A stretch of DNA of 64,000 nucleotides from Minisyncoccota bacterium (GCA_022842945.1 JALHOO010000001.1:221830-285829), one strand, 5' to 3'. Shown: positions 327 to 52,739, counted from the stretch's first letter. The notes: a model not told the origin generated them from the sequence alone. Made by a program: numbers and translations.

Positions 327-354
327 TGCTGGCAGTCTGGGACGATGTTGGAAC
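327..354 (+). repeat. A-type cassette repeat, copy A1 (tgctggcagtctgggacgatgttggaac)
   Basis: Exact consensus copy; direct repeat shared with 14 other loci in this window. Confidence 0.9.
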
Positions 355-358
355 CGCT

Positions 359-733
359 CTAGTCAGCCCTAACAACATAAAAGGCTAGAGCCCCTTCTTG
401 TTGTTCCTTCTCTTCGCTCCACCAGCTCCTCAATCCCGAAAGCAGTTCCTCCTTGTCTCCAAGCTGTGAGAGGTCTTCTTCAATGAGTACGAATAGATCA
501 TTGAATGTTGGAGCACGGTAGATTTTCTTAATCTTCACTACGACTTTGCGAGCATCTTGTTCAGGCTCTATCTGCCAACCCGTGAGGTCTTCCCAAAACT
601 CTATAAAGTCACCCTCGCTCAAATCCTTCCAGGCTTCCTGGTCAAGACGAAAGTCGATTGACTGGCCGCTTTGCACAAGTGCCTCAAACGGCTCAGTGGT
701 TAGCTGGATAGACTTCTTTATCTGCATATGCAA
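359..733 (-). CDS. hypothetical acidic protein (cassette gene, array I)
   Basis: 124-aa ORF bounded by repeats A1 and A2; rich in E, D and W; no recognisable catalytic motif. Confidence 0.45.
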   Translation of the reverse strand: MHMQIKKSIQLTTEPFEALVQSGQSIDFRLDQEAWKDLSEGDFIEFWEDLTGWQIEPEQDARKVVVKIKKIYRAPTFNDLFVLIEEDLSQLGDKEELLSGLRSWWSEEKEQQEGALAFYVVRAD

Positions 734-747
734 AGTGTACCAAGGAT

Positions 748-775
748 TGCTGGCTGTCTGGGACGATGTTGGAAC
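748..775 (+). repeat. A-type cassette repeat, copy A2 (tgctggcTgtctgggacgatgttggaac)
   Basis: One mismatch to consensus. Confidence 0.9.
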
Positions 776-983
776 CTATACTATCCACAACTCTCGAGCC
801 ACCTAATTGCTTGCCAGTATCTAAATGCTAGACTTTCCTTAAGAAAGAGCGGTGCTCCGCTCTTCTGCAAGGTCGGAGTTTTTGACACCGACGGCTTAAT
901 CTCGGTTGAGACGCTAGCACGACCTTGTGCCCTTTCTTTCGGTCCTGACTTCGGTCGGGGCCTTTTCCTATACTATCTACTGT

Positions 984-1006
984 TGCTGGCAGACCAGGTA
1001 TCGAAC
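984..1006 (+). repeat. B-type junction repeat, copy B1 (tgctggcagaccaggtatcgaac)
   Basis: Shares the left arm TTGCTGGCAG with the A repeat and has a different right arm. It lies 1 nt from the TAG stop of lexA (plus-strand CTA at 1008-1010). Confidence 0.85.
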
Positions 1007-1007
1007 C

Positions 1008-1706
1008 CTACCTCTGCGGCTCAAGCTCCGTATAATACTCAACCTTAATATCGTCCACCCACTCCGTTCCCGGAATGATAGAGAGCACTTTTCCAAATAC
1101 CCTCGAGTCCTCTTCCCGTACAACTATTGGATGATAGGTTCCGTACTTGTTCTCCGGGTTCAGATACACTACCTCGTCTACCCGTGAGAAGCGCTTAATA
1201 ACAGCCATGTTTCCAAGAATAGCCACCACACGGTCTCCGTTCTCTACCTGGTCTGTTACCTCAACGATAACGTAGTCGCCGCTATGAATACCTGCGTCCT
1301 GCATAGAGTCCCCAACCGCACGCACGGCAGCAATATTCGTGTAATCCTTACGTCCGCCAATAAGACTGCGGTCAACAACGATGTACTCCCCGAAGCTCTG
1401 CTCCGCGTACACGTCCATGGCGTCACACCCAGCCGACGCAATAACCGGCACCTGAATAAGGTCAGATGAGATCTGAGACTTAACCCCGTCAAGAATAGAA
1501 ATGCTTCGGTGCTGGAAGCGGTTGCGGGTAATGAGACCTTTTCTCTCAAGGCTCTCAAGACGCTGCGTAACACTGCGTAGAGACTTCAATTTAAGTGCTG
1601 TGCCGAGCTCCGTTATGGTTGGAGACTTTCCATTGGCATCCGTATGCTCCTGGATAACCGCTAAGGTTTCTTTCTGTGCTGGTGTGAGAGAAACGAGCTT
1701 GTTCAT
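1008..1706 (-). CDS. lexA: LexA-like transcriptional repressor (S24 peptidase) with C-terminal extension
   Basis: N-terminal winged HTH (ITELGTALKLKS...LERKGLI), catalytic AVGDSM serine motif and downstream Lys (VIKRF); 232 aa. Confidence 0.8.
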   Translation of the reverse strand: MNKLVSLTPAQKETLAVIQEHTDANGKSPTITELGTALKLKSLRSVTQRLESLERKGLITRNRFQHRSISILDGVKSQISSDLIQVPVIASAGCDAMDVYAEQSFGEYIVVDRSLIGGRKDYTNIAAVRAVGDSMQDAGIHSGDYVIVEVTDQVENGDRVVAILGNMAVIKRFSRVDEVVYLNPENKYGTYHPIVVREEDSRVFGKVLSIIPGTEWVDDIKVEYYTELEPQR

Positions 1707-1793
1707 CCGTCAATCGTACACCCGAGCTGGTGGTGCGCCTATACACAACATCTGTAGTTTTCCACACAACATACACAAGTTTACGTTCTCCCT

Positions 1794-2369
1794 CTAATAC
1801 TCAATCGTAAGCGGGAACGATATCAAACGTGCGTTCTCAACCATACCTGACGGATTGTCGTTCATAAGCACAAGCACCGCTTCTCCGATGAAGCTCTCAG
1901 GAACGGTGATGGTTGAGGAAAATGGTACGAAGTCCTCCGTCATCCAGTCAGCACCTCCAACCGGCTGCCCTATACCTGTTGCGATAACGGTACCCATGGT
2001 ATCACGCACCTCAATCGGGAACGATGCTTCAAAGTACCAGGTGCCTCTCGCCTCCCCCATAACCGTTAGCGTTTTTCCAACAACAGAGCCCGGTGTTGGG
2101 TTCGTAAGCCGAATCAGATCTGCTGATGCGTTTACGTAGGTTGGCTCTGGAGCCGGGAGCTCCTCAACATAGAGTCTGCTGTCTGGGGTACGGCATTGCC
2201 GCGGGTAGCTTTCCATAACCGGGTATCCTGCTGCCTCACAGTCTAGAAACGAAAGCACTATCGGTTCCTCAGACACAGCCTGCGGACGCATGAAGAGATA
2301 GACCGAAAGCGCCACACCTCCAACAAGAAGGAGGATCAGGATAAGGAGTGGAAGCGGTTTAAGTGCCAT
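1794..2369 (-). CDS. secreted or membrane-anchored hypothetical protein (Ig-like/Gmad2-like)
   Basis: N-terminal hydrophobic signal anchor (LPLLILILLLVGGVALSVYLF); beta-rich remainder. Confidence 0.45.
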   Translation of the reverse strand: MALKPLPLLILILLLVGGVALSVYLFMRPQAVSEEPIVLSFLDCEAAGYPVMESYPRQCRTPDSRLYVEELPAPEPTYVNASADLIRLTNPTPGSVVGKTLTVMGEARGTWYFEASFPIEVRDTMGTVIATGIGQPVGGADWMTEDFVPFSSTITVPESFIGEAVLVLMNDNPSGMVENARLISFPLTIEY

Positions 2370-2374
2370 AGGTA

Positions 2375-2860
2375 TTAGAGATAACTATCAAAGTAAATTG
2401 CGTGGCAGGTATACCCTCCTGGATTCTTCTGGAGATAATCCTGATGGTGTGCCTCTGCCGGATAGAACACGGTGAACGGTTCGAGGGTTGTAACAACCGG
2501 AGAAGGCCATCGCCCAGACTCGTTAACGATACGTATCATGTCCTCCGCCACCTGTTTCTCCTCAGGGTTTCTGAAGAAGATAGCAGACCGGTACGAGGTA
2601 CCCATGTCGTTGCCTTGCTGGTTTACGGTTGTGGGGTTGTGTACCTGGAAGAAGAAGTTCAGAAGCTCCTTGTATGAGATCTTCTCGGTGTCATAGGTAA
2701 CTTCAAGAGCCTCTGCGTGTCCGGGATGGTTCTCATACGTTGGGTCCTCGTTCTCCCCTCCGGTATACCCCGCCTCAGTCTCAAGCACACCCGGAAGGGT
2801 GCGTACAAGCTCCTCAAGTCCCCAGAAGCATCCGCCCGCGAGATACGCTTTCTCAGTCAT
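2375..2860 (-). CDS. msrA: peptide methionine sulfoxide reductase MsrA
   Basis: Active-site GCFWG motif (AGGCFWGLEEL); length 161 aa. Confidence 0.85.
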   Translation of the reverse strand: MTEKAYLAGGCFWGLEELVRTLPGVLETEAGYTGGENEDPTYENHPGHAEALEVTYDTEKISYKELLNFFFQVHNPTTVNQQGNDMGTSYRSAIFFRNPEEKQVAEDMIRIVNESGRWPSPVVTTLEPFTVFYPAEAHHQDYLQKNPGGYTCHAIYFDSYL

Positions 2861-7400: not shown

Positions 7401-7414
7401 ACATACCAAGAGTT

Positions 7415-7442
7415 TGCTGGCTGTCTGGGACGATGTTGGAAC
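7415..7442 (+). repeat. A-type cassette repeat, copy A4 (tgctggcTgtctgggacgatgttggaac)
   Basis: One mismatch; same variant as A2. Confidence 0.9.
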
Positions 7443-7519: not shown

Positions 7520-7798
7520 ATGTCTGAGGCCCCTGAGGATAAAAAGGTGTTGGTCGGCGAGCGACTCATCCAAGCTCTGCTGTCCCCGGATTACTTTGAA
7601 TTAGTCCTCGACATCTTCAAGGACAGCACGAGCGTTGCGAGCATTGTCGACGTCTTCGACTGTACGGATTATTCCGATCTCGTCAAAGAGGTCTTCGGCA
7701 ATCTGACCAATGAAGAGGTCAAAGATCTTTTCCGGCCTGCACTTCCCGACGCGCTCCGCCGGTTCCTCGGCGCTCAAAGCGTCATCATCACCTGGTGA
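7520..7798 (+). CDS. hypothetical acidic small protein (cassette gene, array II)
   Basis: Own promoter, strong RBS and ATG; 92 aa; terminator downstream; flanked by repeats A4 and A5. Confidence 0.55.
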   Translation: MSEAPEDKKVLVGERLIQALLSPDYFELVLDIFKDSTSVASIVDVFDCTDYSDLVKEVFGNLTNEEVKDLFRPALPDALRRFLGAQSVIITW

Positions 7799-7860: not shown

Positions 7861-7869
7861 TCCAAATAT

Positions 7870-7897
7870 TGCTGGGGGTCTGGGACGATGTTGGAAC
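7870..7897 (+). repeat. A-type cassette repeat, copy A5 (tgctggGGgtctgggacgatgttggaac)
   Basis: CA to GG variant, also seen in A17. Confidence 0.9.
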
Positions 7898-7941
7898 CTT
7901 TATGCAATCTATGTTAGGTTCTGTCTAGAAGGAGTTTTGCA

Positions 7942-8289
7942 ATGGCCCACGACGAAAACAAGTATCTGCTGTGGTGTTTTCTATGGACCACCCACAGCTC
8001 TGACAGACCGGTTAGTGATATTGCGTGCTCGTTACATAGTTCTCTCGCAAAAGGCCAGGAGTTCTGTACGAATTACTGGCGCAACATGCCGGAACACGCC
8101 CCCTCGACCTATCTTGCGCCTACAGGTACTCGCTACCTGTGCCGAGTTGATGAAAAGACTCATAGACGCATCGTGGATAGCGATATTGGCCTCTGGTGCG
8201 TAACGGTTCCTCCCAGTACAACAGAAGCACTTGCCCTTCTTCCCCCTACTGACTTTATGTCACTCACAGAGGGCAGGATGCCGGCGTAA
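7942..8289 (+). CDS. hypothetical Cys/Trp-rich small protein (cassette gene, array II)
   Basis: AAGGAG RBS 7 nt upstream of the ATG; 115 aa; lies between A5 and B2. Confidence 0.5.
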   Translation: MAHDENKYLLWCFLWTTHSSDRPVSDIACSLHSSLAKGQEFCTNYWRNMPEHAPSTYLAPTGTRYLCRVDEKTHRRIVDSDIGLWCVTVPPSTTEALALLPPTDFMSLTEGRMPA

Positions 8290-8380
8290 TCTATGCTACC
8301 GATCTGATGAATCAAGACGGGATTCCCTGAGATAAGAAGCCGAAAACGAGAAATCGTGAGTAGGCTTTTCTCTTTTTTAT

Positions 8381-8403
8381 TGCTGGCAGACTAGGTATCG
8401 AAC
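8381..8403 (+). repeat. B-type junction repeat, copy B2 (tgctggcagactaggtatcgaac)
   Basis: Ends 2 nt before the TAG stop (plus-strand CTA at 8406-8408) of the M23 peptidase gene. Confidence 0.85.
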
Positions 8404-8405
8404 TT

Positions 8406-9773
8406 CTACAAATACGACATCGGATTCAAGTACGCACTCGGAGGAGCAACCGGCATAACCGCACCTCCTGCACTGCAGCCTGTTCCGGCCGGTTGTCCCT
8501 GCTGCTTGCGCCATGCGCCAAGGTCCATAATCTTTACACCCGTTGCAACATACACACTGAAGTGGAGGTGGGGTCCGGTTGCGTAGCCTGTCATACCTGA
8601 GAGGCCGATAGTTTGGCCGGTTGAGACACTCTGTCCTGCAGATACGGTAATACTTGAAAGGTGCGAGTATGAGGTAGCAAGCCCGTTCGGGTGCTTAATA
8701 AGTACCCACTTTCCGAAGGAGAAGCATCCTGGAACAGCGTCTGTGTTTCCGGTCCCCATAACCGTGCCTGAAAGTGCTGCCTGCACCGGGGTACCGCTTG
8801 GCATGCCGATATCGATAGCGTTGTGCCCGGAGCCGTTATAGATCTGTGAGTTGGCGGTTGCAAACGCCGTGTTGCCGAAATACTGCGTTATGCAGCGCGG
8901 GTTCCCCAGTGCCCCTGCCTTCCCTTCGCACGCTGCAGCAAAGCTTGGAGAATATGGCCACGCAAGCACGCCCGTTTGCACGGTAGGCACCTCAGCCTGC
9001 CCCACGGCCTTAAGACTGTTCTCAAGACTTGAGAGTGCCTGCTCGAAGAGTGCACGCTCTGCACGCTTCCGGGTTATGAGATCCTGGTACACGCTCTCCT
9101 GGTTCTTGGTCTGTGAGAGAAGCCTATCCTTCTCGCTCTTCTGCACATCAAGAGACTGCTTCTGGATACCAAGATCGCTCGCAAGGTTGGTAAGTTCGTT
9201 CTTCTTTGCGTCAACGTCCTGAAGCTGTGCACCAAGCGCATCCTTCGCTTGTGAGAGATTCGCTACGTTCGCACGAAGCGCCGTATTCAACGATGCTGCG
9301 TCGTCAATTGCCGTCCACGCTTCTGTGAGGTCGCCAGACGCAAACACCTGCTCAACGAGCGAGATCTCTCCGGCTTCTGCCATATTCCGGATAGATTCCT
9401 CAAGGGTACGCTTGTCGAGAGCGATAAGTTGCTCGGTGTCCTCAATGTTGTACGAGAGCTCGTTCAACTGAAGATTCGTAGAGGAAATCCTCGTCTGTGT
9501 AAGGTTAATCTGCGTGCTCGTCTGCTGGCGCGTTATATCAATAGACTTAATAGCGGTCTGCAGTGTCTGAGACTGTCCGTTCAAAATAAGGCGCTGGCGC
9601 TCTGCCTCTGCAATCTCGGCCTCCAAATCTTTAATCCTCTGTGCGTGCTCACTTATCTGGCTTTTGATCTCGTCTTCGCTCTGTGCAAAGGCTCCTTCCG
9701 GTACAACGGCACCTATACCGGCACACGCAACCAGAAGAACGAGAAGAAAGGATAAGGAACGCAAGGTCTGCAT
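8406..9773 (-). CDS. M23 family metallopeptidase with N-terminal coiled coil (EnvC/LytM-like murein hydrolase)
   Basis: Signal peptide, long coiled-coil region, and a C-terminal M23 domain with HxxxD (GHNAIDIG) and HLH (GPHLHFSV) motifs. Confidence 0.8.
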   Translation of the reverse strand: MQTLRSLSFLLVLLVACAGIGAVVPEGAFAQSEDEIKSQISEHAQRIKDLEAEIAEAERQRLILNGQSQTLQTAIKSIDITRQQTSTQINLTQTRISSTNLQLNELSYNIEDTEQLIALDKRTLEESIRNMAEAGEISLVEQVFASGDLTEAWTAIDDAASLNTALRANVANLSQAKDALGAQLQDVDAKKNELTNLASDLGIQKQSLDVQKSEKDRLLSQTKNQESVYQDLITRKRAERALFEQALSSLENSLKAVGQAEVPTVQTGVLAWPYSPSFAAACEGKAGALGNPRCITQYFGNTAFATANSQIYNGSGHNAIDIGMPSGTPVQAALSGTVMGTGNTDAVPGCFSFGKWVLIKHPNGLATSYSHLSSITVSAGQSVSTGQTIGLSGMTGYATGPHLHFSVYVATGVKIMDLGAWRKQQGQPAGTGCSAGGAVMPVAPPSAYLNPMSYL

Positions 9774-13506: not shown

Positions 13507-13550
13507 GACCTCCCTATTCTAACGCATGGGTGGTGTGTTAAGGCGTGTAT

Positions 13551-13578
13551 AGCTGAATGTTTGGGAGGATGTTGGAAC
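13551..13578 (+). repeat. degenerate A-type repeat, copy A7 (gctgaatgtttgggaggatgttggaac)
   Basis: Right arm TGGGAgGATGTTGGAAC is conserved and the left arm has diverged. It marks the ftsW-proximal end of array III. Confidence 0.6.
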
Positions 13579-13634
13579 CCTGCACTTAGCCTGATATAGT
13601 GCCGCCAGACGTAACCCTCAACCAGAGAGATCCA

Positions 13635-13802
13635 ATGCAGACTCAAGATATTTCTGAAGACGGTGACATCCTGCGGACCGTCCATATCCCTCAATCCGAT
13701 GATCAAGCGCTGCGCGAGATCGCACAAGAAGAAGGAAGGACTGTTCCTGGATTGATACGCGAAGCGTGTATGAACTCGTTTGCGGTGCGTAAGAAATCTT
13801 GA
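13635..13802 (+). CDS. ribbon-helix-helix (CopG/Arc-like) small protein (cassette gene, array III)
   Basis: AGAGAG RBS then ATG; predicted beta-strand RTVHIP then helices DDQALREIAQEEGRTV and PGLIREAC; 55 aa. The ORF track lists a longer form starting at 13599. Confidence 0.4.
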   Translation: MQTQDISEDGDILRTVHIPQSDDQALREIAQEEGRTVPGLIREACMNSFAVRKKS

Positions 13803-13853
13803 CCACTACCCACTAGCGGAATTCCCGCTCCGGTGGGTTTTCTGTTTTATTCT

Positions 13854-14198
13854 CTACACCCTCCTCCACTCGCCGGTCTCTTCATTAAGTATTGCAACTC
13901 GATTCCCTCCAACCGGCATGCCGTTCTCGTAATAGATAACGCTGATGGCCGTCTCAGTTGAAACGTTCTGCCTACCGTGATTACCTTTTCTCATGTACTG
14001 ATATTCGATTGTCTCACCTCCGTTCTCTCCAGTACGCTCTACTTCTCGCAGATACACCCCTTGCTCGTCTGAGAGCTCCCGACCAAGAGTATACCCTTCT
14101 ATATACTGAGAGAGTGCATCGAGTACTTCCTGGCTTGAGAGGATTGTTTCTCTCTTGTTCTCTATGCTATGCGGTTGAGACCCGGGGAATTTTTCCAT
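13854..14198 (-). CDS. hypothetical protein (cassette gene, array III)
   Basis: 114-aa ORF. A bidirectional hairpin lies between it and the RHH ORF, and repeat A8 lies just upstream of its start. Confidence 0.45.
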   Translation of the reverse strand: MEKFPGSQPHSIENKRETILSSQEVLDALSQYIEGYTLGRELSDEQGVYLREVERTGENGGETIEYQYMRKGNHGRQNVSTETAISVIYYENGMPVGGNRVAILNEETGEWRRV

Positions 14199-14222
14199 AG
14201 ACTGATATTAGCATCTGGCTAT

Positions 14223-14250
14223 TACTGGCAGTCTGGGACGACGTTGGAGC
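14223..14250 (+). repeat. A-type cassette repeat, copy A8 (tActggcagtctgggacgAcgttggaGc)
   Basis: Three mismatches. Confidence 0.8.
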
Positions 14251-14299: not shown

Positions 14300-14518
14300 A
14301 TGACAACACACCAAGAAGCTGTGGATGGCCGCCACGCCATCCACAGGAAGTACCGCGATCTGGTCACAGGAGTAGCGGTTATCCAACACCCGACTGAGCC
14401 AGGAAGTTGGGCCGTGCGCCTGACACTCCGAAGCGAGGTCGCACCAGGAACCATTGCATCGGAACTGGACGGCATAACAATTGTGACAGAGGTGGGTGGA
14501 CCGGCAAATCTTTTATAG
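14300..14518 (+). CDS. hypothetical small protein (cassette gene, array III)
   Basis: AGAGGAGA RBS then ATG; 72 aa; terminator hairpin GCGCAGGACAAAATCCTGCGC downstream. Confidence 0.45.
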   Translation: MTTHQEAVDGRHAIHRKYRDLVTGVAVIQHPTEPGSWAVRLTLRSEVAPGTIASELDGITIVTEVGGPANLL

Positions 14519-14682: not shown

Positions 14683-15057
14683 GTGGCAAAAATTGGTCTT
14701 AAACGGAGCAAAAGAAGAAGAACATCAGGAAGAATGCGTGGAGGCGGTAGTGGGAACAGAAAAACTTGTAGAGTATCCCTCCGCACTATTGCGCTACTCT
14801 TTCCTCCTAGAAGCGTACAGAGAGTGTACCTGCACGGAAGGTGGCAGAAATCGAGAGGCCGACGACCCTGTCTTAGTCTAGAAAACCTGCAAGACCCTCG
14901 TCTCGCATATGAGCAGGCAGAGGAGCTCGTGGGCGAATACATTCGTTCAGTCCTAAGTACGCCCCATGCATATGGCAAATGGCAATGGGAAGGTCGCGGA
15001 CGTGAATTAGCGAAAGCGATTTCTGAACAGGTGCCTCCGGAAGAAGTGTTCTGGTAA
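14683..15057 (+). CDS. hypothetical protein (cassette gene, array III; start uncertain)
   Basis: GGGAGA RBS then GTG. The N-terminus is low-complexity R/G-rich, the C-terminal half (RLAYEQAEELVGEYIRSVL...) is protein-like. An alternative 62-aa frame also exists (14693..14881). Confidence 0.3.
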   Translation: MAKIGLKRSKRRRTSGRMRGGGSGNRKTCRVSLRTIALLFPPRSVQRVYLHGRWQKSRGRRPCLSLENLQDPRLAYEQAEELVGEYIRSVLSTPHAYGKWQWEGRGRELAKAISEQVPPEEVFW

Positions 15058-15184: not shown

Positions 15185-15517
15185 TTAGGTAGTCTCCCGG
15201 ATAGTTTCCAGATGGGCGTCGACGAGTTCGACCAGTTTTTTCAATACGGCGTCGCGAGCATAGACTGCGGGCAGGTTGGATCCAGAGATCCAGCGGTAAA
15301 GCGTGACCGGCGAAACACCGAAGACATGCGCCATGCTCTCTACATTGCCGAGTTTCGAAATAACCGCGCCGACAATCTGAGAGAACTCTTCTCTGTCTTT
15401 GACGTTCGTTGTCTCGAGAACTTCCTTCGCAGTCTCAAACCACGAGACATCGATGAGTCGAAGCGTAGTGAGCACGCGGCTCTGAGGACGCTCCGCCTTG
15501 ATCGGGTGAACGGTCAT
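15185..15517 (-). CDS. XRE-family helix-turn-helix transcriptional regulator (cassette gene, array III)
   Basis: HTH motif MAHVFGVSPVTLYRWISG; 110 aa; minus-strand terminator AAGTCCCGCCCCTAAGAAGGCGGGATTTT downstream of its stop. Confidence 0.55.
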   Translation of the reverse strand: MTVHPIKAERPQSRVLTTLRLIDVSWFETAKEVLETTNVKDREEFSQIVGAVISKLGNVESMAHVFGVSPVTLYRWISGSNLPAVYARDAVLKKLVELVDAHLETIRETT

Positions 15518-15612
15518 ATGTTGATACCCTCTGTGAAAAGCAAAAAAGAACGATACCGCATAGTACCCTGCAAATCAGATTTAGCAACGTAATCTAATTG
15601 TTGTAGAAGTTA

Positions 15613-15635
15613 TTCTGGCAGACCAGGTATTGAAC
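15613..15635 (+). repeat. B-type junction repeat, copy B3 (ttctggcagaccaggtattgaac)
   Basis: Abuts or overlaps by 1 nt the TAG stop (plus-strand CTA at 15635-15637) of mraY. Confidence 0.8.
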
Positions 15636-16696
15636 TATTTCAACAACGCCAACGCCAACCCAAAGATACCCGCGATAATCGTAATAACCCAGTAGCGCAT
15701 CGTAACCTTGTACGCAGGCCAGCCAATAGCTTCAAAGTGATGGTGGATAGGGGCAATACGGAAGATCTTCTTCTTCAGTACCTTCTTGCAGAACACCTGG
15801 ATCATACTCGTAGCAACCGTAACGGTAAGAGGAAGTGCGATTATGGGAAGTACGGATACCCCAACCCCGTCTCCAAGCACGTCTGTCGAGAACGCCGTTA
15901 TAGCGAGCGCAACCGTAAGGGCCATAGTGCCCGTCTCAGACAAATAGAAGCGTGCGGGCGGAATATTAAACCAAAGGAACGCGAAGAGAGATCCTGAGAC
16001 ACAGGCAGCAAACGCTGCAAGTGTCGTCTGTCCCTGTGCAAACGCAATGCCTGCATACGTCATGAAAATAATGGCGAACACGCCTCCTGCAAGCCCATCA
16101 ATGCCGTCTATAACGCCGCCGGCATAGAGCGCGAGCGTAACCAACATAAAGAACCCAATGAAGAAGACCCCAAGCTCAACAGGTCCTACAAACGGCACGC
16201 CAACCGTAGACACATCAAGCTTCTCGTAAAACCACCAGCCCGCAAACGCACCAATAGCGCCAACAACAAGAAGACGCCAGCGAAGACGCAGTCCTCCAGA
16301 AGATCTCGTAACCTCAAAGATGTCGTCTATAAGGCCAACGGCAGCTCCCGCAGCAAGCGCAAACAACGGAAGCCACGTCTGACTCCTACTTATGAAATCA
16401 AAGGAGGTAAACGGTTCTCCAAAGAAAAGCGCCAGTACCCAAAGACCAAGTGCGGTTATGAGTGTCGACGCCCACACAATAATGCCGCCCATGCGCGGCG
16501 TGGAGACCTCCCTTTCTTTGTGAAGCTCGTCAAAGAGTGGGGTGCCGTTCTTGTCCCCCATGCTGTTTCCCTTCCCGCCAACCTTCTTCCATGCACGGAA
16601 CTTGAAGAGGTAGTGGGTCAGTATTGGGGCAAGCGCAATACCAATAACGAATGACGCAACGGACGGGATTAGGACACGTGCCGCATCGATAATCAT
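15635..16696 (-). CDS. mraY: phospho-N-acetylmuramoyl-pentapeptide transferase MraY
   Basis: Polytopic membrane protein with conserved MraY loops (DDxxD-like GLIDDIFE, HHHFE motif PIHHHFEAIGW). Confidence 0.85.
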   Translation of the reverse strand: MIIDAARVLIPSVASFVIGIALAPILTHYLFKFRAWKKVGGKGNSMGDKNGTPLFDELHKEREVSTPRMGGIIVWASTLITALGLWVLALFFGEPFTSFDFISRSQTWLPLFALAAGAAVGLIDDIFEVTRSSGGLRLRWRLLVVGAIGAFAGWWFYEKLDVSTVGVPFVGPVELGVFFIGFFMLVTLALYAGGVIDGIDGLAGGVFAIIFMTYAGIAFAQGQTTLAAFAACVSGSLFAFLWFNIPPARFYLSETGTMALTVALAITAFSTDVLGDGVGVSVLPIIALPLTVTVATSMIQVFCKKVLKKKIFRIAPIHHHFEAIGWPAYKVTMRYWVITIIAGIFGLALALLK

Positions 16697-22651: not shown

Positions 22652-23608
22652 CTAGGACACGCCAACCGCTCGACGAACCTCTTCCATCTTCACGTTTGCA
22701 CGTTCGCGCGCAAGCTGCCCGCCCTTCTCAAGTACGTCTAGAACGGTGCGCGGATCGCTTGCTAACTCATGGTATCGCTCACGGAGGGGGGCGATAAAAG
22801 CATCAAGGTCTTCGATGAGGGCTTCCTTGAGTGCCTTGTACTTCCCTGTGTGCTCCGTGTACAGAGACTCAAGCTCGTGCTCGGTCTTTAAAAGCTTATG
22901 GATGGCGTACACGTTCTCAGGACGATCGCTTCCAGAGTCTGTAACGATGCTCATAACGAGTTCCTCAATATCTGTACGTGAAGAGAAGAGCGGAATAGTG
23001 TTGTTGTAGCTTTTGCTCATCTTCTGTCCGTCGAGACCTGGAACAACGGCAACCTCAGGAACGATGAACTCCTCAGGAAGCGTGAAGGTCTCGCCGAAGG
23101 TACGGTTGAACTTCTCAGCGGTGTCGCGCGCGAACTCAATGTGCTGCTTCTGGTCATGTCCCACAGGAACCTTTGCGGTGTTGTAGAGGAGGATGTCTGC
23201 CGCCATGAGCATCGGATAGTTGAAGGTTCCAACAGACACCTCTTTGTTCTTCGCTTCTCCATCTTTGAACGCATGTGCGCGCATGAGGTACGGCATGGTG
23301 GTGATGGTGTCGAATATCCATGCGAGCTCGGTATGCGCCGGCACGTCAGATTGCTTGAATAGCACCACCTTCTCGGGATTAAGTCCCGACGCCATGTAGG
23401 TTAGGACGAGCTCGCGCGTAAGGTCGCGCATGTCGCCTGCGTTCTGTACGAAGTTAAGCGCATGGTAGTCCGCAACCATGATGTAGCTCTGGTGGCTCCC
23501 AACCGTCTGAAACTCTACGAGCTGCTTAATAGCACCGAAGTAGTTCCCGATGTGCGGTACACCGGTTGGTTTAATGCCTGAAAGAAGGATGGGCTTGTCT
23601 GTTTCCAT
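22652..23608 (-). CDS. trpS: tryptophanyl-tRNA synthetase
   Basis: HIGH motif (GVPHIGNYFGA) and KMSKS motif. Confidence 0.85.
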   Translation of the reverse strand: METDKPILLSGIKPTGVPHIGNYFGAIKQLVEFQTVGSHQSYIMVADYHALNFVQNAGDMRDLTRELVLTYMASGLNPEKVVLFKQSDVPAHTELAWIFDTITTMPYLMRAHAFKDGEAKNKEVSVGTFNYPMLMAADILLYNTAKVPVGHDQKQHIEFARDTAEKFNRTFGETFTLPEEFIVPEVAVVPGLDGQKMSKSYNNTIPLFSSRTDIEELVMSIVTDSGSDRPENVYAIHKLLKTEHELESLYTEHTGKYKALKEALIEDLDAFIAPLRERYHELASDPRTVLDVLEKGGQLARERANVKMEEVRRAVGVS

Positions 23609-25103: not shown

Positions 25104-25273
25104 TAGCCTCCCATCTCAAAGTTCGAGACAAGCACGGACAAGACCGTGCAGGTTGACGACGGATGTCGTTCCAGCACTTTTATATAACAATATTAGGCAC
25201 TATGTCAAGTCTCTAACCCCACCCAGACCAAAGCACCCTATAGGGTGCTTTGGTTCCAAAACTCTTCTTAGGG

Positions 25274-25356
25274 TGCGCCGGGGAGGATTCGAACCTCCGA
25301 AGCCGTGAGGCGACAGGTTTACAGCCTGCATGTTTTGACCACTTACCTACCGACGC
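25274..25356 (-). tRNA. tRNA-Tyr (anticodon GTA), class II with long variable arm
   Basis: Acceptor stem GCGTCGG/CCGGCGC, anticodon loop CTGTAAA and T-arm GGAGG-TTCGAAT-CCTCC; CCA not fully encoded. Confidence 0.75.
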
Positions 25357-26129
25357 GTCAAGCTCTCGTACCGGTTCTGGTGCTTCGCATTCATAGGCTG
25401 AATCTCTGCGAAGAATCTCTCCACATCGTCTCGCTTCGTTACATAAATGCAATCTGAACTCAGCTCCGATACTCGATATCCTAACCTTCGCAACATAGCC
25501 TGTAAAGCGAGAAGCAGCGGGATCGACTTATTGGTAAAGGACAGCTGCACGCCGAATCGAAGCTTATAGACCGAGCCGTCCGTATCAAAGAACCCTCTCA
25601 GGAAGGAACGCATGTATGCTTCCTTCTCAAACAGCCATCCAGGCACACCCACTTGAGCTGCCACCTTGTTTGATACCAGTCCTTGGACAATAAGCCATCG
25701 GGTAAGCTCGACCGAACCTATGTACACATCGTGAAAACCATTACTTCTGTGGCAAATAGTTGCAGGAACCTTGAACAGAGAAGTCATGAGCGCTTGCACG
25801 TAACAGACGTAGTTATATTCCTTAGTTCCGAGGGTAACGAATGTCTGATACGTGCCTACATGTCCATCACCTAGCATAATCCCGAAGAATTCAGCGAGGT
25901 CCTCTGACCGTTTTACGGGAATAGTAAGGTCAGTACGTTTTCCAAGATAGGTGCTCTTGAGTTCAGGACAGGTGGGTATTGCTAGACGCTTCAGTCTATC
26001 GAATACCGTTTTGGATGATATAGAAAGAATCGCCCCGACCTCATTAATAGTCTTATTCTGACGAACATAAAGCTCGAGCAGTGCTTCTCTATGTAAATCC
26101 TCCTCTTCAGTTGTCCATCTCCTTGCCAT
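25347..26129 (-). CDS. LAGLIDADG family homing endonuclease with N-terminal HTH domain
   Basis: Two LAGLIDADG-type motifs (FFGIMLGDGHV and GFFDTDGSV) and an N-terminal HTH (INEVGAILSISSKTVFDRLKRL). The 3' end overlaps the tRNA-Tyr 5' end by about 10 nt. Confidence 0.65.
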   Translation of the reverse strand: MARRWTTEEEDLHREALLELYVRQNKTINEVGAILSISSKTVFDRLKRLAIPTCPELKSTYLGKRTDLTIPVKRSEDLAEFFGIMLGDGHVGTYQTFVTLGTKEYNYVCYVQALMTSLFKVPATICHRSNGFHDVYIGSVELTRWLIVQGLVSNKVAAQVGVPGWLFEKEAYMRSFLRGFFDTDGSVYKLRFGVQLSFTNKSIPLLLALQAMLRRLGYRVSELSSDCIYVTKRDDVERFFAEIQPMNAKHQNRYESLTRR

Positions 26130-48770: not shown

Positions 48771-49630
48771 ACCTGTACTCTAGGGATATGCGAACGGTTT
48801 CAAAGAAAGTACTCAGTATCGCTCTCATGAGTGTAGCGGCCATGCTTGGCGGAGCGCTCTTGCTCTACGTCTCTTCTAGCGGAGAAGCACAAACACTTCT
48901 TGAAGAATACGCATCCATACCTCCCGCAGAGTCTCCTCTTGAGACGGGTCCTCCCACTTATGTTGAGATTATGGAGTCCTGCGGGGCCTTGTTTGAAGGA
49001 GACTGCGTGCATGTACGCATTGATCCTAATGTCACTGCTCCGTCCTATATGCAAGCACGTGCGGGCATGGTGCTTCCTGTTGCCAAAGAGATCGTTACGG
49101 ACGACTCCGGAAGAGCATGGTACCGCGTACAGTTTACGGAGTGGCTACGCTATGCAGATCGTGTACCTAAAGACCTCTATATCGCAGAAGAGTTTGTAGT
49201 GCCCGTGTACAACCCGGTATCTGAAATACTTCCTACGGTTGGTGCGCAGGAAACTAATAAGCGTATTGTGGTGGATCGCTCTGAACAGACGCTATATGCG
49301 TATGAAGGAGATGAGCTCTATATGCAGACTACTATCTCAACGGGACTGGACCTAAGTCCAACACCCCGCGGTACGTTCACAGTCTTTAGAAAGACACCGA
49401 GTCGCTATATGCAGGGTCCTCTGCCTGGTATATCAGATCAGTACTATGATCTTCCAGGTGTGCCGTGGACGCTCTACTTTACGGAAGATGGCGGAGCCAT
49501 ACATGGTGCGTACTGGCATAACGACTTTGGTGCACAGCGATCTCATGGGTGTGTAAATGTGCCGCTTAGTCTTGCAAGAAAGCTGTACGAGTGGGCTCCG
49601 GTTGGGACATTAGTTGTTGTACGGGATTAG
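48758..49630 (+). CDS. L,D-transpeptidase (YkuD domain)
   Basis: N-terminal TM anchor; catalytic HGxxxxxxxxSHGC motif (HNDFGAQRSHGCVNVP). Confidence 0.7.
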   Translation: MICTNLYSRDMRTVSKKVLSIALMSVAAMLGGALLLYVSSSGEAQTLLEEYASIPPAESPLETGPPTYVEIMESCGALFEGDCVHVRIDPNVTAPSYMQARAGMVLPVAKEIVTDDSGRAWYRVQFTEWLRYADRVPKDLYIAEEFVVPVYNPVSEILPTVGAQETNKRIVVDRSEQTLYAYEGDELYMQTTISTGLDLSPTPRGTFTVFRKTPSRYMQGPLPGISDQYYDLPGVPWTLYFTEDGGAIHGAYWHNDFGAQRSHGCVNVPLSLARKLYEWAPVGTLVVVRD

Positions 49631-50030
49631 TAGGCACTTCGAGACGATATTGGAGCCTCTATGTGTTCGTGATACGTTTCTCGAAGAGTTGAAAGGGTTG
49701 AACATGCTCAGAGAACAAGAAGTTGCCTTGCAACAGATTGATGCCATACGCAAACAAGCGGCACGTAGCCTTACTGAGTTTCTAGAGTCAGGATTCGTAG
49801 GCTCAACAGACGAGGTCATATTCAGCAAGACAGTAGAGGCGTTTGTGCAGTTCTGCGGGGTTTCGGCTGAGGAGCTCGCAGAAGAATGGGCAATGCAACC
49901 AGCAACGGTACGCCGGTACATGCAGGACGGGGCACACTGCCCGATTAATATGCGTCCATACCGTCTCGGCTTAATCCTTACGCGTCTTAAGGGACGGACA
50001 AATAATGTTGTGTATCTTAATAGCCCTTAG
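49614..50030 (+). CDS. hypothetical protein (outermost gene of array IV; start probably near 49704)
   Basis: GAAAGGG RBS before the internal Met MLREQEV...; terminator hairpin ATAGCCCttagtcgGGGCTAT downstream. Confidence 0.4.
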   Translation: MLYGISRHFETILEPLCVRDTFLEELKGLNMLREQEVALQQIDAIRKQAARSLTEFLESGFVGSTDEVIFSKTVEAFVQFCGVSAEELAEEWAMQPATVRRYMQDGAHCPINMRPYRLGLILTRLKGRTNNVVYLNSP

Positions 50031-50044
50031 TCGGGGCTATTCTT
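50020..50044 (+). terminator. terminator hairpin ATAGCCC-ttagtcg-GGGCTAT plus TCTTTT
   Basis: 7-bp stem plus T-tract, 1 nt before repeat A12. Confidence 0.45.
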
Positions 50045-50045
50045 T

Positions 50046-50073
50046 TGCTGGCAGCCTGGGACGACGTTGGAAC
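50046..50073 (+). repeat. A-type cassette repeat, copy A12 (tgctggcagCctgggacgAcgttggaac)
   Basis: Two mismatches. Confidence 0.9.
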
Positions 50074-50075
50074 CC

Positions 50076-50417
50076 TTACCCTTCAACTTCGTACTGTTCA
50101 GGGTTCCATGCCGGGGTGCACGCAATGATGAGAACGAGCCTTCCGTCCCACCACACCCGCTCTCCTTTCTCAATTAGAACCACGTCCCCTTTCTTGAGAG
50201 GAATCGTTTCATTATTGACAGTTACGTTTCCTTCCCCTTCTTGGACATATACCAACTCTGAAACGGCTTTATTAATCGCACTTCCTTCTAAGGGGTACCG
50301 ACCGGTTATCTCTATGCGTGCCAGATTAATGTCAGGCTCCCCTGTCTGGTATTCAAAGGCTATGCAGGAGGATGCGTTCTCGAATCTTTTTGCATCAGTT
50401 CCGCATACGATTTTCAT
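50076..50417 (-). CDS. cupin domain protein (cassette gene, array IV)
   Basis: Cupin beta-barrel motifs; 113 aa; bounded by repeats A12 and A13. Confidence 0.5.
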   Translation of the reverse strand: MKIVCGTDAKRFENASSCIAFEYQTGEPDINLARIEITGRYPLEGSAINKAVSELVYVQEGEGNVTVNNETIPLKKGDVVLIEKGERVWWDGRLVLIIACTPAWNPEQYEVEG

Positions 50418-50436
50418 CTACTTATTCTAGCAATAT

Positions 50437-50464
50437 TGCTGGCAGTCTGGGACGATGTTGGAAC
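50437..50464 (+). repeat. A-type cassette repeat, copy A13 (exact consensus)
   Basis: tgctggcagtctgggacgatgttggaac. Confidence 0.9.
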
Positions 50465-50513
50465 TCATATACAAGAGTGTTATGGTTTTCTCCAGACCAG
50501 AACGGAGAACGAC

Positions 50514-50654
50514 ATGACCACCCCTTTGCGTCCCACCGGAGCAAAATCCGACAGGGACATTACTGACGCATTCGGCAAGTTTGCCTTGGAGCTTCCTGGT
50601 GCGAAACGTATTTTGCGTGTACCGACAAGTGCGCCGAAAGACCAGAAACGTTGA
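50514..50654 (+). CDS. small hypothetical protein, 46 aa (cassette gene, array IV)
   Basis: GGAGAA RBS then ATG; terminator CCCCCGATggaaacgTCGGGGG plus CTTTCTT downstream. The ORF-track version 50436..50654 starts inside the repeat. Confidence 0.35.
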   Translation: MTTPLRPTGAKSDRDITDAFGKFALELPGAKRILRVPTSAPKDQKR

Positions 50655-50712
50655 ATGCTTCACAAACCAGTTGCTTACCCCCGATGGAAACGTCGGGGGC
50701 TTTCTTAAAAAT

Positions 50713-50738
50713 CCTGCTGTCTGGAACAATGTTGGAAC
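50713..50738 (+). repeat. A-type repeat variant, copy A14 (cctgctgtctggaacaatgttggaac)
   Basis: Belongs to the AACAATG subfamily together with A15 and A16; 2-nt shorter left arm. Confidence 0.75.
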
Positions 50739-50780
50739 TTCCATTAGAAATGGCCGGCACCTTGCGAGTGCCGGCCAAGA

Positions 50781-50978
50781 TCAAAAGAATGATTTGTGTT
50801 GATTGACTATTATGGACGCAAGAATGCATCCGCGACGGTCTTGGCGATATCGAGCGGAACCCCTCGATCGAGGTTCTTTCCGATAAGACGCTTGTACCGG
50901 TTGGTTCTGCGCCAGGGCTTGGTAGCTGGTGCTGCTTTCACATGCATAGGAATCTCCAGAAATGAGCGGTATGCCCAC
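50781..50978 (-). CDS. small hypothetical protein (cassette gene, array IV; GTG start)
   Basis: 65-aa ORF. A minus-strand hairpin GGCCGGCACtcgcaagGTGCCGGCC follows immediately downstream of its stop. Confidence 0.25.
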   Translation of the reverse strand: MGIPLISGDSYACESSTSYQALAQNQPVQASYRKEPRSRGSARYRQDRRGCILASIIVNQHKSFF

Positions 50979-51040
50979 TCTTAGGAACTAACCTCAACAA
51001 TCTAAGGTTTCTTCTTAAATACTGTGCTAGGTATGGAGAT

Positions 51041-51068
51041 TGCCAGCTGTCTGGAACAATGTTGGAAC
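51041..51068 (+). repeat. A-type repeat variant, copy A15 (tgccagctgtctggaacaatgttggaac)
   Basis: CCAGCTG and AACAATG variant. Confidence 0.85.
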
Positions 51069-51069
51069 C

Positions 51070-51573
51070 CTATTCCTTTCTAGGGAATGAGTGCAGCCAA
51101 GAAATAAGACGCTCTAGTGGTACGGTACGGTCCTTCTGTTCAGTCTTAAAGCAACGAGGTACAAGCGAGACTGGTACGGTGTAGACACGCTCTTCGGACT
51201 CAGAAAGATACGCCTTTCTCTGCTCAACAAACAAACAGTTTGGATAGTCTTGGCCTTCCCATACCTTCTCAAAAGAGCTCTCCTGACTCCGGTACGCAAG
51301 TATTTCTACCCCTCCTCCTTCTCGGCTGCTTGCAGAGAATGCATAATACTCTGCGTCCTTTGCCTTGAGAGAAAGATCTGTCTCTGGCGGCAATTCTAGT
51401 TCTTGCTTGGCCTTCTCAAGTACGGCAGAAAAACCTTCAGTTTGACTCATCTCTTCTGCATTTGCCCGGGCACTCGCCTCAAGCGATTCGGTGCTTTTGG
51501 GGGTTAGGAGGAAAATAGCTGCTGCCAATGTTAGTACGAAGATTCCTATTGCAAGGTTTCCGTGCGCTTTCAT
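51070..51573 (-). CDS. secreted hypothetical protein (cassette gene, array IV)
   Basis: Signal peptide MKAHGNLAIGIFVLTLAAAIFLL; 167 aa; bounded by repeats A15 and A16. Confidence 0.5.
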   Translation of the reverse strand: MKAHGNLAIGIFVLTLAAAIFLLTPKSTESLEASARANAEEMSQTEGFSAVLEKAKQELELPPETDLSLKAKDAEYYAFSASSREGGGVEILAYRSQESSFEKVWEGQDYPNCLFVEQRKAYLSESEERVYTVPVSLVPRCFKTEQKDRTVPLERLISWLHSFPRKE

Positions 51574-51606
51574 GCTTTAAATTGTATCAGTTGTGTATAC
51601 CTTTAC

Positions 51607-51634
51607 TGCCAGCTGTCTGGAACAATGTTGGAAT
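51607..51634 (+). repeat. A-type repeat variant, copy A16 (tgccagctgtctggaacaatgttggaaT)
   Basis: Same subfamily as A15. Confidence 0.85.
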
Positions 51635-51683
51635 CCTCCAGGCACAGTGCTATTATCGGCCTAGGCAGAACAAGGAGCCTCAA

Positions 51684-51917
51684 GTGGTACATGAATCAAC
51701 ATTCACCTTCGTGAGTGCGGACGGCCAGAGAATCGAGGCCAACCGCAGGACCAACCCTGATGGCTCTGTCGGAGGATGGGTTGCTGGAAACGCTGACGTG
51801 CATCCGACTGCGATCATCAATGTCGACGCAATTGTCGAGCCTGGCGCTATCGTGGGCGAGAACGAGCATCTCGCCGCAGGAGAGACCAAGAGCGGCGACG
51901 GGTGGACGAACGCGTAA
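51684..51917 (+). CDS. small left-handed beta-helix (hexapeptide-repeat) protein (cassette gene, array IV)
   Basis: AAGGAG RBS 6 nt before a GTG in frame with the track ORF; hexapeptide periodicity IINVDA/IVEPGA/IVGENE/HLAAGE; terminator GGGCAGTCGGAC..GTCCGACTGCCC downstream. Confidence 0.45.
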   Translation: MVHESTFTFVSADGQRIEANRRTNPDGSVGGWVAGNADVHPTAIINVDAIVEPGAIVGENEHLAAGETKSGDGWTNA

Positions 51918-51963
51918 GAATAGGGGCAGTCGGACGAATCTTGTCCGACTGCCCTTTCTTAAT

Positions 51964-51991
51964 TGCTGGGGGTCTGGGACGATGTTGGAAC
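51964..51991 (+). repeat. A-type cassette repeat, copy A17 (tgctggGGgtctgggacgatgttggaac)
   Basis: Same GG variant as A5 in array II. Confidence 0.9.
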
Positions 51992-52360
51992 CGTCTTGAC
52001 ACTCCACAGACAGGTGTATACTTAACAGTGGAAGTAAGGGAGGACATCAAACGAGACTCTCGGCCCAACAGCCGGGACCAGGCCATCCTTCGAGAAGTCA
52101 CGCTAAATGCTTCGGCAGCCATAGAGGGTTCCAGCCCCGTAAGCGGTACAACTTCAAAGAAGGTCTGAGTAAGCTTGTGCAAGTGCGCACATGTACAAGC
52201 CCAACACGGGTGGTTCTGCTTAAGCCGTTAGGCGTCAGCAAGTAGAGTTGGGTTTCGACCCAATGAACCGGTTCTCACTTTTGAGCTGCCATCCAAGCCT
52301 AAGCCCTTTCTTCCAACTTTTCTTTCAGGCCACCTCTCGGGGTGGTCTTTCTCTTTAGAT

Positions 52361-52388
52361 TGCTGGCAGTCTGGGACGACGTTAGAAC
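52361..52388 (+). repeat. A-type cassette repeat, copy A18 (tgctggcagtctgggacgAcgttAgaac)
   Basis: Two mismatches; preceded by a terminator GGCCACCtctcgGGGTGGTC plus TTTCTCTTT. Confidence 0.85.
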
Positions 52389-52392
52389 TTTA

Positions 52393-52698
52393 CTACGCCT
52401 TAACGATGGTTTTCTTAACAGACTCAACAAATAGTCTAAAAGCAGGACGGTCTTCTTTCTCGTATACAACCTTAACTCCAAGCAGGTGTTGCCTAGGGCA
52501 AGAAAGATCTTTTCTCGCGATAGAAACCTTCGGGTCCCGTATTCTGTCCAAGTACAGCCTTCTTAATGCGCCTGGACCATCTTTCTGGTACCGGCAGATT
52601 TCCACGCCGCACTTCTCGCATGTAATAGCGAGTAAACGAGAATATCCCCCGCGGCTTCTGCGGAATTTATCGTTCTTAAACTTCTCGCTCATACGCAA
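52393..52698 (-). CDS. Cys-rich zinc-ribbon-like small protein (cassette gene, array IV)
   Basis: CEKCGVEIC ... CPRQH, a four-Cys arrangement; basic; 101 aa. Confidence 0.4.
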   Translation of the reverse strand: MRMSEKFKNDKFRRSRGGYSRLLAITCEKCGVEICRYQKDGPGALRRLYLDRIRDPKVSIARKDLSCPRQHLLGVKVVYEKEDRPAFRLFVESVKKTIVKA

Positions 52699-52716
52699 AG
52701 GTTAGCACAGCGATAT

Positions 52717-52739
52717 TGCTGGCAGACTAGGGACCGAAC
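52717..52739 (+). repeat. B-type junction repeat, copy B4 (tgctggcagactagggaccgaac)
   Basis: Directly abuts the TAG stop (plus-strand CTA at 52740-52742) of alaS. Confidence 0.8.

Follow-up and report, generated by a model that had tools for sequence, protein, structure and literature searches.

Several described systems collect short pieces of DNA into arrays punctuated by a recurring sequence. In integrons and in clusters of attC sites lacking integron integrases (CALINs), short and mostly single-gene cassettes of unknown function are joined at one recurring site of constant orientation. Their content varies between strains while the flanks are conserved, new cassettes are found beside a special terminal site (the role played by attI), and a CALIN array may have no integrase next to it. 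The same description fits four arrays of small gene cassettes in a 64,000-nucleotide stretch of DNA from a Minisyncoccota bacterium (GCA_022842945.1 JALHOO010000001.1:221830-285829), here called the window. The cassettes are separated by an internal repeat (I-site), and each array is closed by a terminal site at its end (T-site). We propose, with a probability of roughly 60%, that these arrays are made of tiny mobile gene cassettes joined by conservative site-specific recombination at a site derived from the 3′ end of tRNA-Gln.

The likeness to integrons does not extend to the parts. An integron attC site is an imperfect palindrome of about 55-140 nt that folds into a hairpin, whereas the I-site is an asymmetric, tRNA-Gln-derived sequence of 35 nt with no hairpin, no R''/L''/L'/R' organisation and no RYYYAAC...GTTRRRY pair. 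No gene for an IntI-type tyrosine recombinase was found adjoining an array here, and there is no attI or Pc promoter; instead, -10 elements and terminators belong to the individual cassettes, which occur on both strands. Also unlike integrons, several arrays occur within 64 kb, and it is the site sequence itself, rather than structure alone, that is conserved in the lineage. The system is integron-like in function, yet it fails every integron feature that we tested.

A second comparison is with elements that target tRNA genes and with cis-mobilizable elements (CIMEs). As in the arrays, att sites of such elements are direct repeats of a tRNA 3′ end and the tRNA is left intact, and CIMEs pile up in tandem between att copies with no integrase of their own (PMC5704250, PMC7563491). 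The units described here differ in being single genes of 0.25-1.2 kb rather than islands of several kilobases, and no integrase-bearing partner element lies in the arrays. Moreover, the arrays also dock on copies of a tRNA fragment at the stop codons of protein genes, and their internal site is conserved but diverged, not an exact duplicate. The islands of Dehalococcoides that integrate into ssrA reportedly stand several in tandem, with direct repeats of the gene 3′ end between them, and vary from strain to strain. They are said to be large, each with a recombinase of its own, whereas no cassette here has one. The att logic of these ssrA-specific islands is in common with that of the arrays (PMC3146451).

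Like pdif modules and integrative mobile elements exploiting Xer recombination (IMEX), the cassettes have a short site and no recombinase of their own and would rely on a housekeeping tyrosine recombinase; the one recombinase gene seen close to arrays here is XerD-like. However, dif sites are 28-nt imperfect dyads with an 11-6-11 layout, whereas the I-site consensus has no dyad between its arms. The modules of pdif are also bounded by sites of alternating orientation, whereas all of the at least 439 I-sites found are direct within their locus (this and all other distribution counts come from public scans of one genome per species, metagenomes and viral contigs, and are lower bounds). Finally, the repeats of CRISPR arrays measure 28-37 nt and alternate with spacers of about 30-40 nt, whereas the intervals here hold genes and span 236-671 bp from site to site, a somewhat wider range than the 250-600 bp of the first-pass annotation, made from the sequence alone. 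Pfam scans of the window found no cas gene in the array flanks, and the only Cas4-type match, at the Pfam cut-off, was an open reading frame (ORF) for a PD-(D/E)XK nuclease at 57199-58020, about 4.5 kb from array 4.

We searched the window for the I-site in three ways. A 29-mer with up to three mismatches gave 11 matches and a 20-nt core gave 15, against 0 expected from shuffled sequences for the core; every match was on the + strand, and all lay in four clusters. A profile for nhmmer, built solely from sites outside the window, retrieved the same 15 sites (E ≤ 7e-5) and added an eroded 16th copy at 49638-49663 (E = 0.049), just past the ykuD stop codon. The first-pass annotation was thus right about 15 copies, one orientation and four clusters, but the start of array 4 belongs at the ykuD stop, near 49634, instead of at 50046. 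A position-by-position profile of 196 copies gave an asymmetric 35-nt consensus, TTGCTGGC-N-GTCTGGGACGATGTTGGAAC-CTTTnT, with sharp edges and with flanks that carry no information. Position 8 is free, CTTTnT comes after GGAAC, and conservation is 60-90% in the left 8 nt and mostly above 90% in the right part. The conserved block is therefore longer than the ~28 nt originally assigned to it. In addition, the copies at the right ends (983-1006, 8380-8403, 15612-15635 and 52716-52739), counted at first as the same repeat, belong to a distinct type of site, described below. We found no dyad or hairpin in the I-site, its single-strand folding energy (0 to -0.3 kcal/mol) being no better than that of shuffles; the earlier statement that the repeat is neither an imperfect palindrome nor attC-like holds for the 35-nt block as well.

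The four arrays occupy about 11% of the window and contain the following features.

326-354 (+), I-site 1, left end of array 1 (pattern and profile search)
359-733 (-), cassette gene of ~122 aa, apparently leaderless, weak match to colicin/pyocin immunity proteins
747-775 (+), I-site 2 (pattern and profile search)
776-982 (+), cassette with no credible ORF but a promoter-like site and a terminator hairpin; may encode a small RNA (fold z = -2.57)
983-1006 (+), T-site of array 1, 1 nt from the TAG stop of lexA (1008-1706, -)
7414-7442 (+), I-site 3, left end of array 2 (pattern and profile search)
7520-7798 (+), cassette gene of 92 aa, no family match
7869-7897 (+), I-site 4, followed by a conserved 30-nt promoter module at 7898-7927
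7942-8289 (+), cassette gene of 115 aa, no family match
8380-8403 (+), T-site closing array 2, with the TAG stop of an M23 peptidase gene (8406-9773, -) 2 nt away
13550-13578 (+), I-site 5, left end of array 3, left part diverged (core and profile search)
13579-14221, double cassette: ribbon-helix-helix (RHH) gene at 13599-13802 (+) and 114-aa gene at 13854-14198 (-)
14222-14250 (+), I-site 6 (pattern and profile search)
14300-14518 (+), cassette gene of 72 aa
14567-14595 (+), I-site 7 (pattern and profile search)
14683-15057 (+), cassette gene of 124 aa
15105-15133 (+), I-site 8, between the 3′ ends of two genes
15185-15517 (-), cassette gene of 110 aa, weak helix-turn-helix (HTH)/Cro-like matches
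15612-15635 (+), T-site closing array 3, sharing 1 nt with the TAG stop of a family-4 glycosyltransferase gene (15635-16696, -)
49634-49662 (+), eroded I-site beside the ykuD stop and actual left boundary of array 4 (E = 0.049; recognisable in its right part only)
49614-50030 (+), cassette gene, weak HTH_60 match; real start probably an ATG near 49705
50045-50073 (+), I-site 9 (pattern and profile search)
50076-50417 (-), cassette gene for a 113-aa cupin; 2 nt separate its stop from one I-site and 18 nt its start from the following one
50436-50464 (+), I-site 10, exact match to the consensus, between the starts of divergent genes
50514-50654 (+), cassette gene of 46 aa
50710-50738 (+), I-site 11, left part diverged (core and profile search)
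50810-50947 (-), cassette gene of 45 aa
51040-51068 (+), I-site 12 (core and profile search)
51070-51573 (-), cassette gene of 167 aa, hydrophobic N-terminus
51606-51634 (+), I-site 13, its own TTGGAA serving as -35 element of a promoter-like site
51684-51917 (+), cassette gene of 77 aa
51963-51991 (+), I-site 14 (pattern and profile search)
51992-52359 (+), cassette lacking a credible ORF, with promoter and terminator; possible small-RNA gene (fold z = -2.73, without Rfam match)
52360-52388 (+), I-site 15 (pattern and profile search)
52393-52698 (-), cassette gene of 101 aa with Cys-rich motifs (cassette 52389-52715)
52716-52739 (+), T-site closing array 4, immediately next to the TAG stop of alaS (52740-54656, -)

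Cassette genes lie on either strand whereas the orientation of the repeat never changes, as had been noted at the outset. I-sites are found between two gene 3′ ends (326, 15105 and 50045), between two gene starts (50436 and 51606) and in tandem arrangements, so the site is independent of gene direction. This points to a boundary at the level of DNA rather than to a signal for a single gene. Searches with ARAGORN and Rfam, including a permissive Rfam search of array 4, found no tRNA gene or known RNA family at the repeats. A reading of the motif as a sigma-54 or extracytoplasmic function (ECF) sigma factor promoter was rejected on inspection of the sequence, as the spacings are unsuited.

The T-site, TTGCTGGCAGACYAGGKAYCGAAC, is the 3′ end of tRNA-Gln. 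It is the last site of each array in the window, and the four instances (starting at 983, 8380, 15612 and 52716) are 24-27-nt copies of this tRNA end, each placed -1 to +2 nt from the TAG stop codon of a minus-strand housekeeping gene: lexA, the M23 peptidase gene, the family-4 glycosyltransferase gene and alaS. Elsewhere in Patescibacteria, a complete tRNA-Gln gene (anticodon UUG or CUG) on the opposite strand has the T-site as its 3′ end, in at least 12 distinct contexts. The I-site aligns to the same 28 nt of the tRNA-Gln end with a single 5-nt insertion, and the two sites have in common a left segment, TTGCTGG(C/G), that corresponds to the acceptor 3′ strand, discriminator base and trailer of the tRNA.

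Where T-sites lie outside tRNA genes, 29 of 55 adjoin a convergent ORF at its stop codon. Of these 29 stops, 27 are TAG, and in 18 cases the spacing is zero; at the corresponding point tRNA-Gln reads GAAC followed directly by CTAG. The excess of TAG has a P value of about 4e-9 against a background of 41% TAG and is still significant, at an estimated 1.5e-3 or so, against the 68% background of the window. In the window itself TAG is the commonest stop codon (32 TAG, 13 TAA and 2 TGA among 47 confident genes). Housekeeping genes there are nearly all on the - strand, opposite to the repeat orientation, and the GC skew of the + strand is negative throughout.

Given that the sites derive from a tRNA 3′ end, they could conceivably act in RNA, as tRNA-like segments that tRNA-processing enzymes cut to free the cassette mRNAs, much as in mitochondrial transcripts. 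Consistent with this, a T-site together with its TAG stop can form a short T-arm-like hairpin (-2.1 to -2.4 kcal/mol). However, no structure is predicted for the I-site (0 to -0.3 kcal/mol), which also has no Rfam or tRNA match and no 5′ acceptor strand, and genes are found on both strands relative to it. We regard processing at the RNA level as very improbable indeed.

Related arrays are widespread in the lineage. At least 193 related loci carry at least 439 I-sites and at least 82 T-sites, and they range from 28 to 58% GC. Among the 193 loci listed, none shows mixed site orientation, and the T-site always comes last in the array, never ahead of an I-site. The first-pass annotation had held that random scatter of the repeat would argue against a mobile cassette system; what is seen instead is a set of same-orientation arrays bounding small cassettes. 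In the one-per-species scan, the 20-nt core occurs in many Patescibacteria genomes, labelled Paceibacterota, Parcubacteria, Nomura-, Kaiser-, Wolfe- and Lloydbacteria and, in one case, Berkelbacteria. Several assemblies with the core are labelled 'Saccharibacteria', a label taken as given here. We found no description of the I-site motif in the literature, search by literal sequence included, and a hypervariable region of Gracilibacteria that came up as a lead proved unrelated.

Core matches in Rhodobacterales and Myxococcus were rejected as an unrelated, high-GC coding look-alike. This look-alike, which translates roughly as ...VWDDVGTFDGRPWRG..., is found in L002, L003, L005, other high-GC loci and IMG/VR contigs L129-L248, and only patterns that take in the left part of the I-site keep it from overwhelming a scan. 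The core matches listed in viral contigs are all of this kind, and the refined I-site pattern gave 0 matches in 2.9 million viral contigs; a viral origin was rejected on these grounds. A phage genome or phage promoter repeats can likewise be ruled out for the window, a bacterial chromosome with genes for aminoacyl-tRNA synthetases, dnaK/dnaJ/grpE, rpoA and cell-wall genes. Proteins from metagenome-assembled genomes of Patescibacteria/Parcubacteria match its alanyl-tRNA synthetase (AlaRS) at 77-98% identity.

To see how stable the arrays are, one can compare the gap between alaS and ykuD, which has conserved flanks and different contents in the window and its relatives (AlaRS identities refer to the window protein).

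Window: eight cassettes
L123, AlaRS 98%: one unrelated pilin-like gene, no recognisable T- or I-site
L119 and L120, AlaRS 90%: a T-site followed by two cassettes, one HIT-family and one of 108 aa
L124, AlaRS 90%: a T-site, then one 158-aa ORF, no I-site
L125-L128, AlaRS 90%: a T-site, then two other cassettes
L122, AlaRS 83%: a perfect T-site of tRNA-Gln type, two further cassettes
L121, AlaRS 85%: no sites

The gap cassettes of L119, L120, L122 and L124-128 have no sequence in common with those of the window. Array content is thus not fixed, fixed content having been named at the outset as evidence against mobility: where the window has eight cassettes, relatives with 83-98% identical AlaRS have unrelated genes. 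In L123, a segment past the stop (1933-1975, TGCTCCTAGAAGCCGGAA) is faintly like an eroded T-site (TCCCTAGTCTGCCAGCAA), and the pilin-like gene may be a former cassette that has become fixed.

Homology between cassettes breaks off inside the site. From end to end, the window cassette at 52389-52715, which has an I-site on one side and a T-site on the other, shows 88% identity to an internal L302 cassette that lies between two I-sites; the flanks are unrelated, and homology stops right past TTGCT(G/A)GCAG. L094 and L271 are near-identical upstream, but where L094 has its T-site and anchor gene, L271 has an I-site and more cassettes, these extra cassettes sitting between the last cassette and the T-site. 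Divergence of this pair begins immediately past TTGCTGG. For a third pair, L310 and L349, the breakpoint on the left falls near position 9 of the I-site. From these three pairs we place the putative exchange point within about positions 3-9 of the site, a position that agrees with the lower conservation of the left 8 nt.

Such junctions might also arise without a dedicated recombinase, if foreign DNA were taken up and exchanged by RecA, with the 35-mers serving as portable arms of homology. Patescibacteria are regarded as able to take up DNA, the length and identity of the sites would suffice for homologous exchange of low efficiency, and no recombinase is linked to the arrays. On the other hand, an I-site and a T-site have just 7-10 nt in common, and yet junctions fall there. 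Nor would RecA account for a T-site that is always terminal, or for a left segment of 8 nt that is less conserved than the right 27 nt. As a full explanation we think this quite unlikely, although RecA-mediated exchange between 35-mers could contribute.

The cargo is small and diverse. Across at least 319 intervals the median cassette length is 503 bp (5th-95th percentiles, 249-1223 bp), and nearly all of the cassettes are mutually unrelated. Products in the window include a cupin and an RHH protein; one further protein has weak HTH/Cro-like matches, another weakly matches colicin immunity proteins, and several have no family match. PADLOC found no defence-system match among 10 cassette proteins. 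The initial description of one gene per interval is correct for most intervals, but 13579-14221 holds two genes, and 776-982 and 51992-52359 have no credible ORF. The two genes of 13579-14221 are convergent. As its 114-aa part is a stand-alone cassette of about 365 bp in L250 and L332, this interval probably represents two cassettes fused after loss of the I-site between them. RNAs from the two ORF-less cassettes fold somewhat better than shuffles (z = -2.57 for 776-982 and -2.73 for 51992-52359), and these cassettes may carry small RNAs.

The first-pass annotation had also given each cassette its own promoter and terminator. Terminator-like hairpins are indeed enriched in the arrays (7 against 2.8 expected; 6 against 1.7 expected), but strict sigma-70 matches are not, and those present in the arrays use the TTGGAA of the I-site as their -35 element. 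Analysis of 391 sites showed a -10 hexamer to be enriched 16-17 nt to the right of the I-site and 6-7 nt to its left, the latter followed by leaderless start codons. In about 17% of sites TTGGAA lies 17-18 nt upstream of a -10 hexamer, and a -10 hexamer is found 6-7 nt left of about 13%. Some of the rightward hexamers belong to a conserved 30-nt promoter module.

This module, CTTTCTGCAACATATGGTAGGTTCTGTCTAG, has an extended -10 element (TGnTAGGTT) and stands after GGAAC and before unrelated genes. It is present at 7898-7927 and 59933-59962 of the window and in L015, L035, L071, L072, L077, L081, L104 and L107. It also occurs upstream of a non-cassette ORF (60000-61061) and where the left part of the I-site is absent, and may be the operator of a shared regulator. 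In genes that run leftward from I-sites, a TATAAT-like hexamer frequently precedes the ATG by 6-7 nt and a Shine-Dalgarno sequence is lacking (in the window at 726-746, 50418-50435 and 51574-51605, and at many other loci), a pattern that suggests leaderless mRNAs to be common among cassettes.

These signals raise the question of whether the 35-mer is mainly regulatory, a bidirectional promoter core or an operator, with the arrays being accessory genes under common control. The -35/-10 arrangement to the right of about 17% of sites and the -10 hexamer to the left of about 13% would fit such a role, as would the downstream promoter module, which occurs without the repeat too. However, the sites between two gene 3′ ends (50045, 15105 and 326) have nothing to regulate. 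A regulatory role would also leave unaccounted for the constant orientation whatever the gene strand, the tRNA-derived terminal site, the breakpoints inside the site and the near-invariance over 35 nt. We therefore consider it distinctly unlikely that regulation is the main function.

If the cassettes are moved by a recombinase, its gene should be somewhere other than in the window: Pfam scans of essentially all ORFs in the 64 kb revealed no Phage_integrase or other recombinase domain, in keeping with the absence of a recombinase reported at first reading. We also grouped all long ORFs in the neighbourhood of arrays by clustering and examined the recurring groups with Pfam. No recombinase family recurs within about 8 kb of the arrays in the 193 loci listed, and the recurrent neighbours are housekeeping genes (dnaX, dus, ftsQ, serS, alaS, mnmA, xthA and cca). 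Searches with phmmer, using E. coli XerD and lambda Int, found solely an XerD-like gene at two orthologous loci. Its stop codon adjoins the leftmost I-site in L034 (4195-5142) and is 14 nt from the leftmost I-site in L338 (5431-6471). The protein is the product of a conserved, single-locus gene of the lineage, 76-100% identical among the 120 best matches. In four relatives (L372-L375), the gap between xerD and xthA contains 0-3 unrelated genes, with sites that are eroded or absent; in L373 it is 50 nt long and has an inverted repeat. The gap is a variable spot, but as a general platform for arrays it was rejected, since most arrays are elsewhere. This XerD-like tyrosine recombinase is the only candidate enzyme that we saw.

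The lack of an integrase could mean that traffic has ceased. By this account, larger, integrase-bearing islands or prophages inserted successively into tRNA-Gln and decayed to single genes, and the sites are dead att scars, much as in CIMEs. It fits with sites that are copies of the tRNA-Gln 3′ end, as in classical tRNA-targeted islands, with the absence of any integrase and with the erosion of some sites (for example 13550, 49634 and one in L372). But scars should decay, and yet the 35-mer is almost invariant across very divergent genomes. Among the at least 319 cassettes there is no integrase-bearing unit and no integrase remnant, nor is there an integrase-bearing unit in their flanks, and cassette sizes are tightly small (median 503 bp). 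Whole cassettes distinguish near-identical strains, the refined I-site pattern is missing from all 2.9 million viral contigs, and several arrays stand at gene ends and not at a tRNA. Hence, we judge that the arrays are unlikely to be mere relics.

The array anatomy, the tRNA origin of the sites, their conservation across Parcubacteria-type genomes, strain-to-strain turnover and breakpoints inside the site have been demonstrated, and comparative anatomy suggests how the cassettes could move. The T-site, a real tRNA-Gln 3′ end or a copy of it on a TAG stop, would act like attB or attI, and the I-site, a copy of the tRNA end that has diverged and carries 5 inserted nt, would act like attP or attC. 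Strand exchange would take place within the common TTGCTGG(C/G) segment. The mobile unit would then run from ..GTCTGGGACGATGTTGGAAC CTTTnT through one gene, on either strand and with its own promoter and terminator, to TTGCTGG. A circular cassette with one I-site could insert at the T-site or at any I-site, restoring the T-site beside the anchor gene and leaving an I-site distally. Since each insertion would restore the proximal T-site, repeated insertion (c, cassette) would yield arrays of the form I-c-I-c-...-T, all in one orientation. A crossover at the right end of the site (GAAC) was rejected, because the tRNA-proximal site would then have an I-type left part, yet it keeps the tRNA's own sequence. 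The recombinase would act in trans and be encoded elsewhere.

Recombination chemistry, circular intermediate and enzyme are all inferred here from comparative anatomy. To that extent, the comparative evidence supports the trans-acting cassette capture put forward in the first-pass annotation. Of the two readings suggested there, integron-like or tandem att-site, the latter is more accurate, because the sites are tRNA-Gln-derived and include a special terminal site.

Several points weigh against recombination at the site. The breakpoints are drawn from a handful of cassette pairs, and no empty-site/occupied-site pair with an exact junction was seen. Ends that match, as expected of an excised circle, were found in 0 of 120 metagenome stretches. 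No recombinase is tied to the sites, and the I-site has neither the dyad symmetry usual for tyrosine-recombinase core sites nor a hairpin. Because many I-sites double as promoter parts, a regulatory role adds to their conservation. Lastly, the model leaves unexplained how T-sites came to be placed exactly on the TAG stops of unrelated genes. A still broader version of the proposal is that the arrays form a lineage-wide, integron-analogous system in Patescibacteria of Parcubacteria type, with single-gene cassettes, many arrays per tiny genome, docking at tRNA-Gln or at copies of its 3′ end exactly on TAG stops, a conserved housekeeping-type recombinase acting in trans in place of a dedicated integrase and a role as a main route of gene gain and loss in such reduced genomes. 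For this version we see the odds as evenly balanced.

One other feature of the window involves a tRNA. A LAGLIDADG homing-endonuclease-like ORF (25347-26129, -) overlaps the end of tRNA-Tyr (25272-25356), the sole tRNA gene of the window. It lies between a gene for a Trp/Tyr-type class I tRNA synthetase (22652-23608) and tyrS (26178-27428).

Genomes of Patescibacteria are very small and streamlined, and how they gain and shuffle accessory genes is poorly understood. The element described here suggests a partial answer. If it is a true working recombination system, it would represent a second, independently evolved solution to the problem that integrons solve, with a short, linear, tRNA-derived site in place of the folded attC. 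It would also offer a 35-nt site of defined sequence and a few candidate enzymes to test, as well as a simple marker for the pool of flexible genes in metagenome-assembled genomes, with hundreds of unknown small proteins, and possibly small RNAs, thereby flagged as exchangeable cargo.

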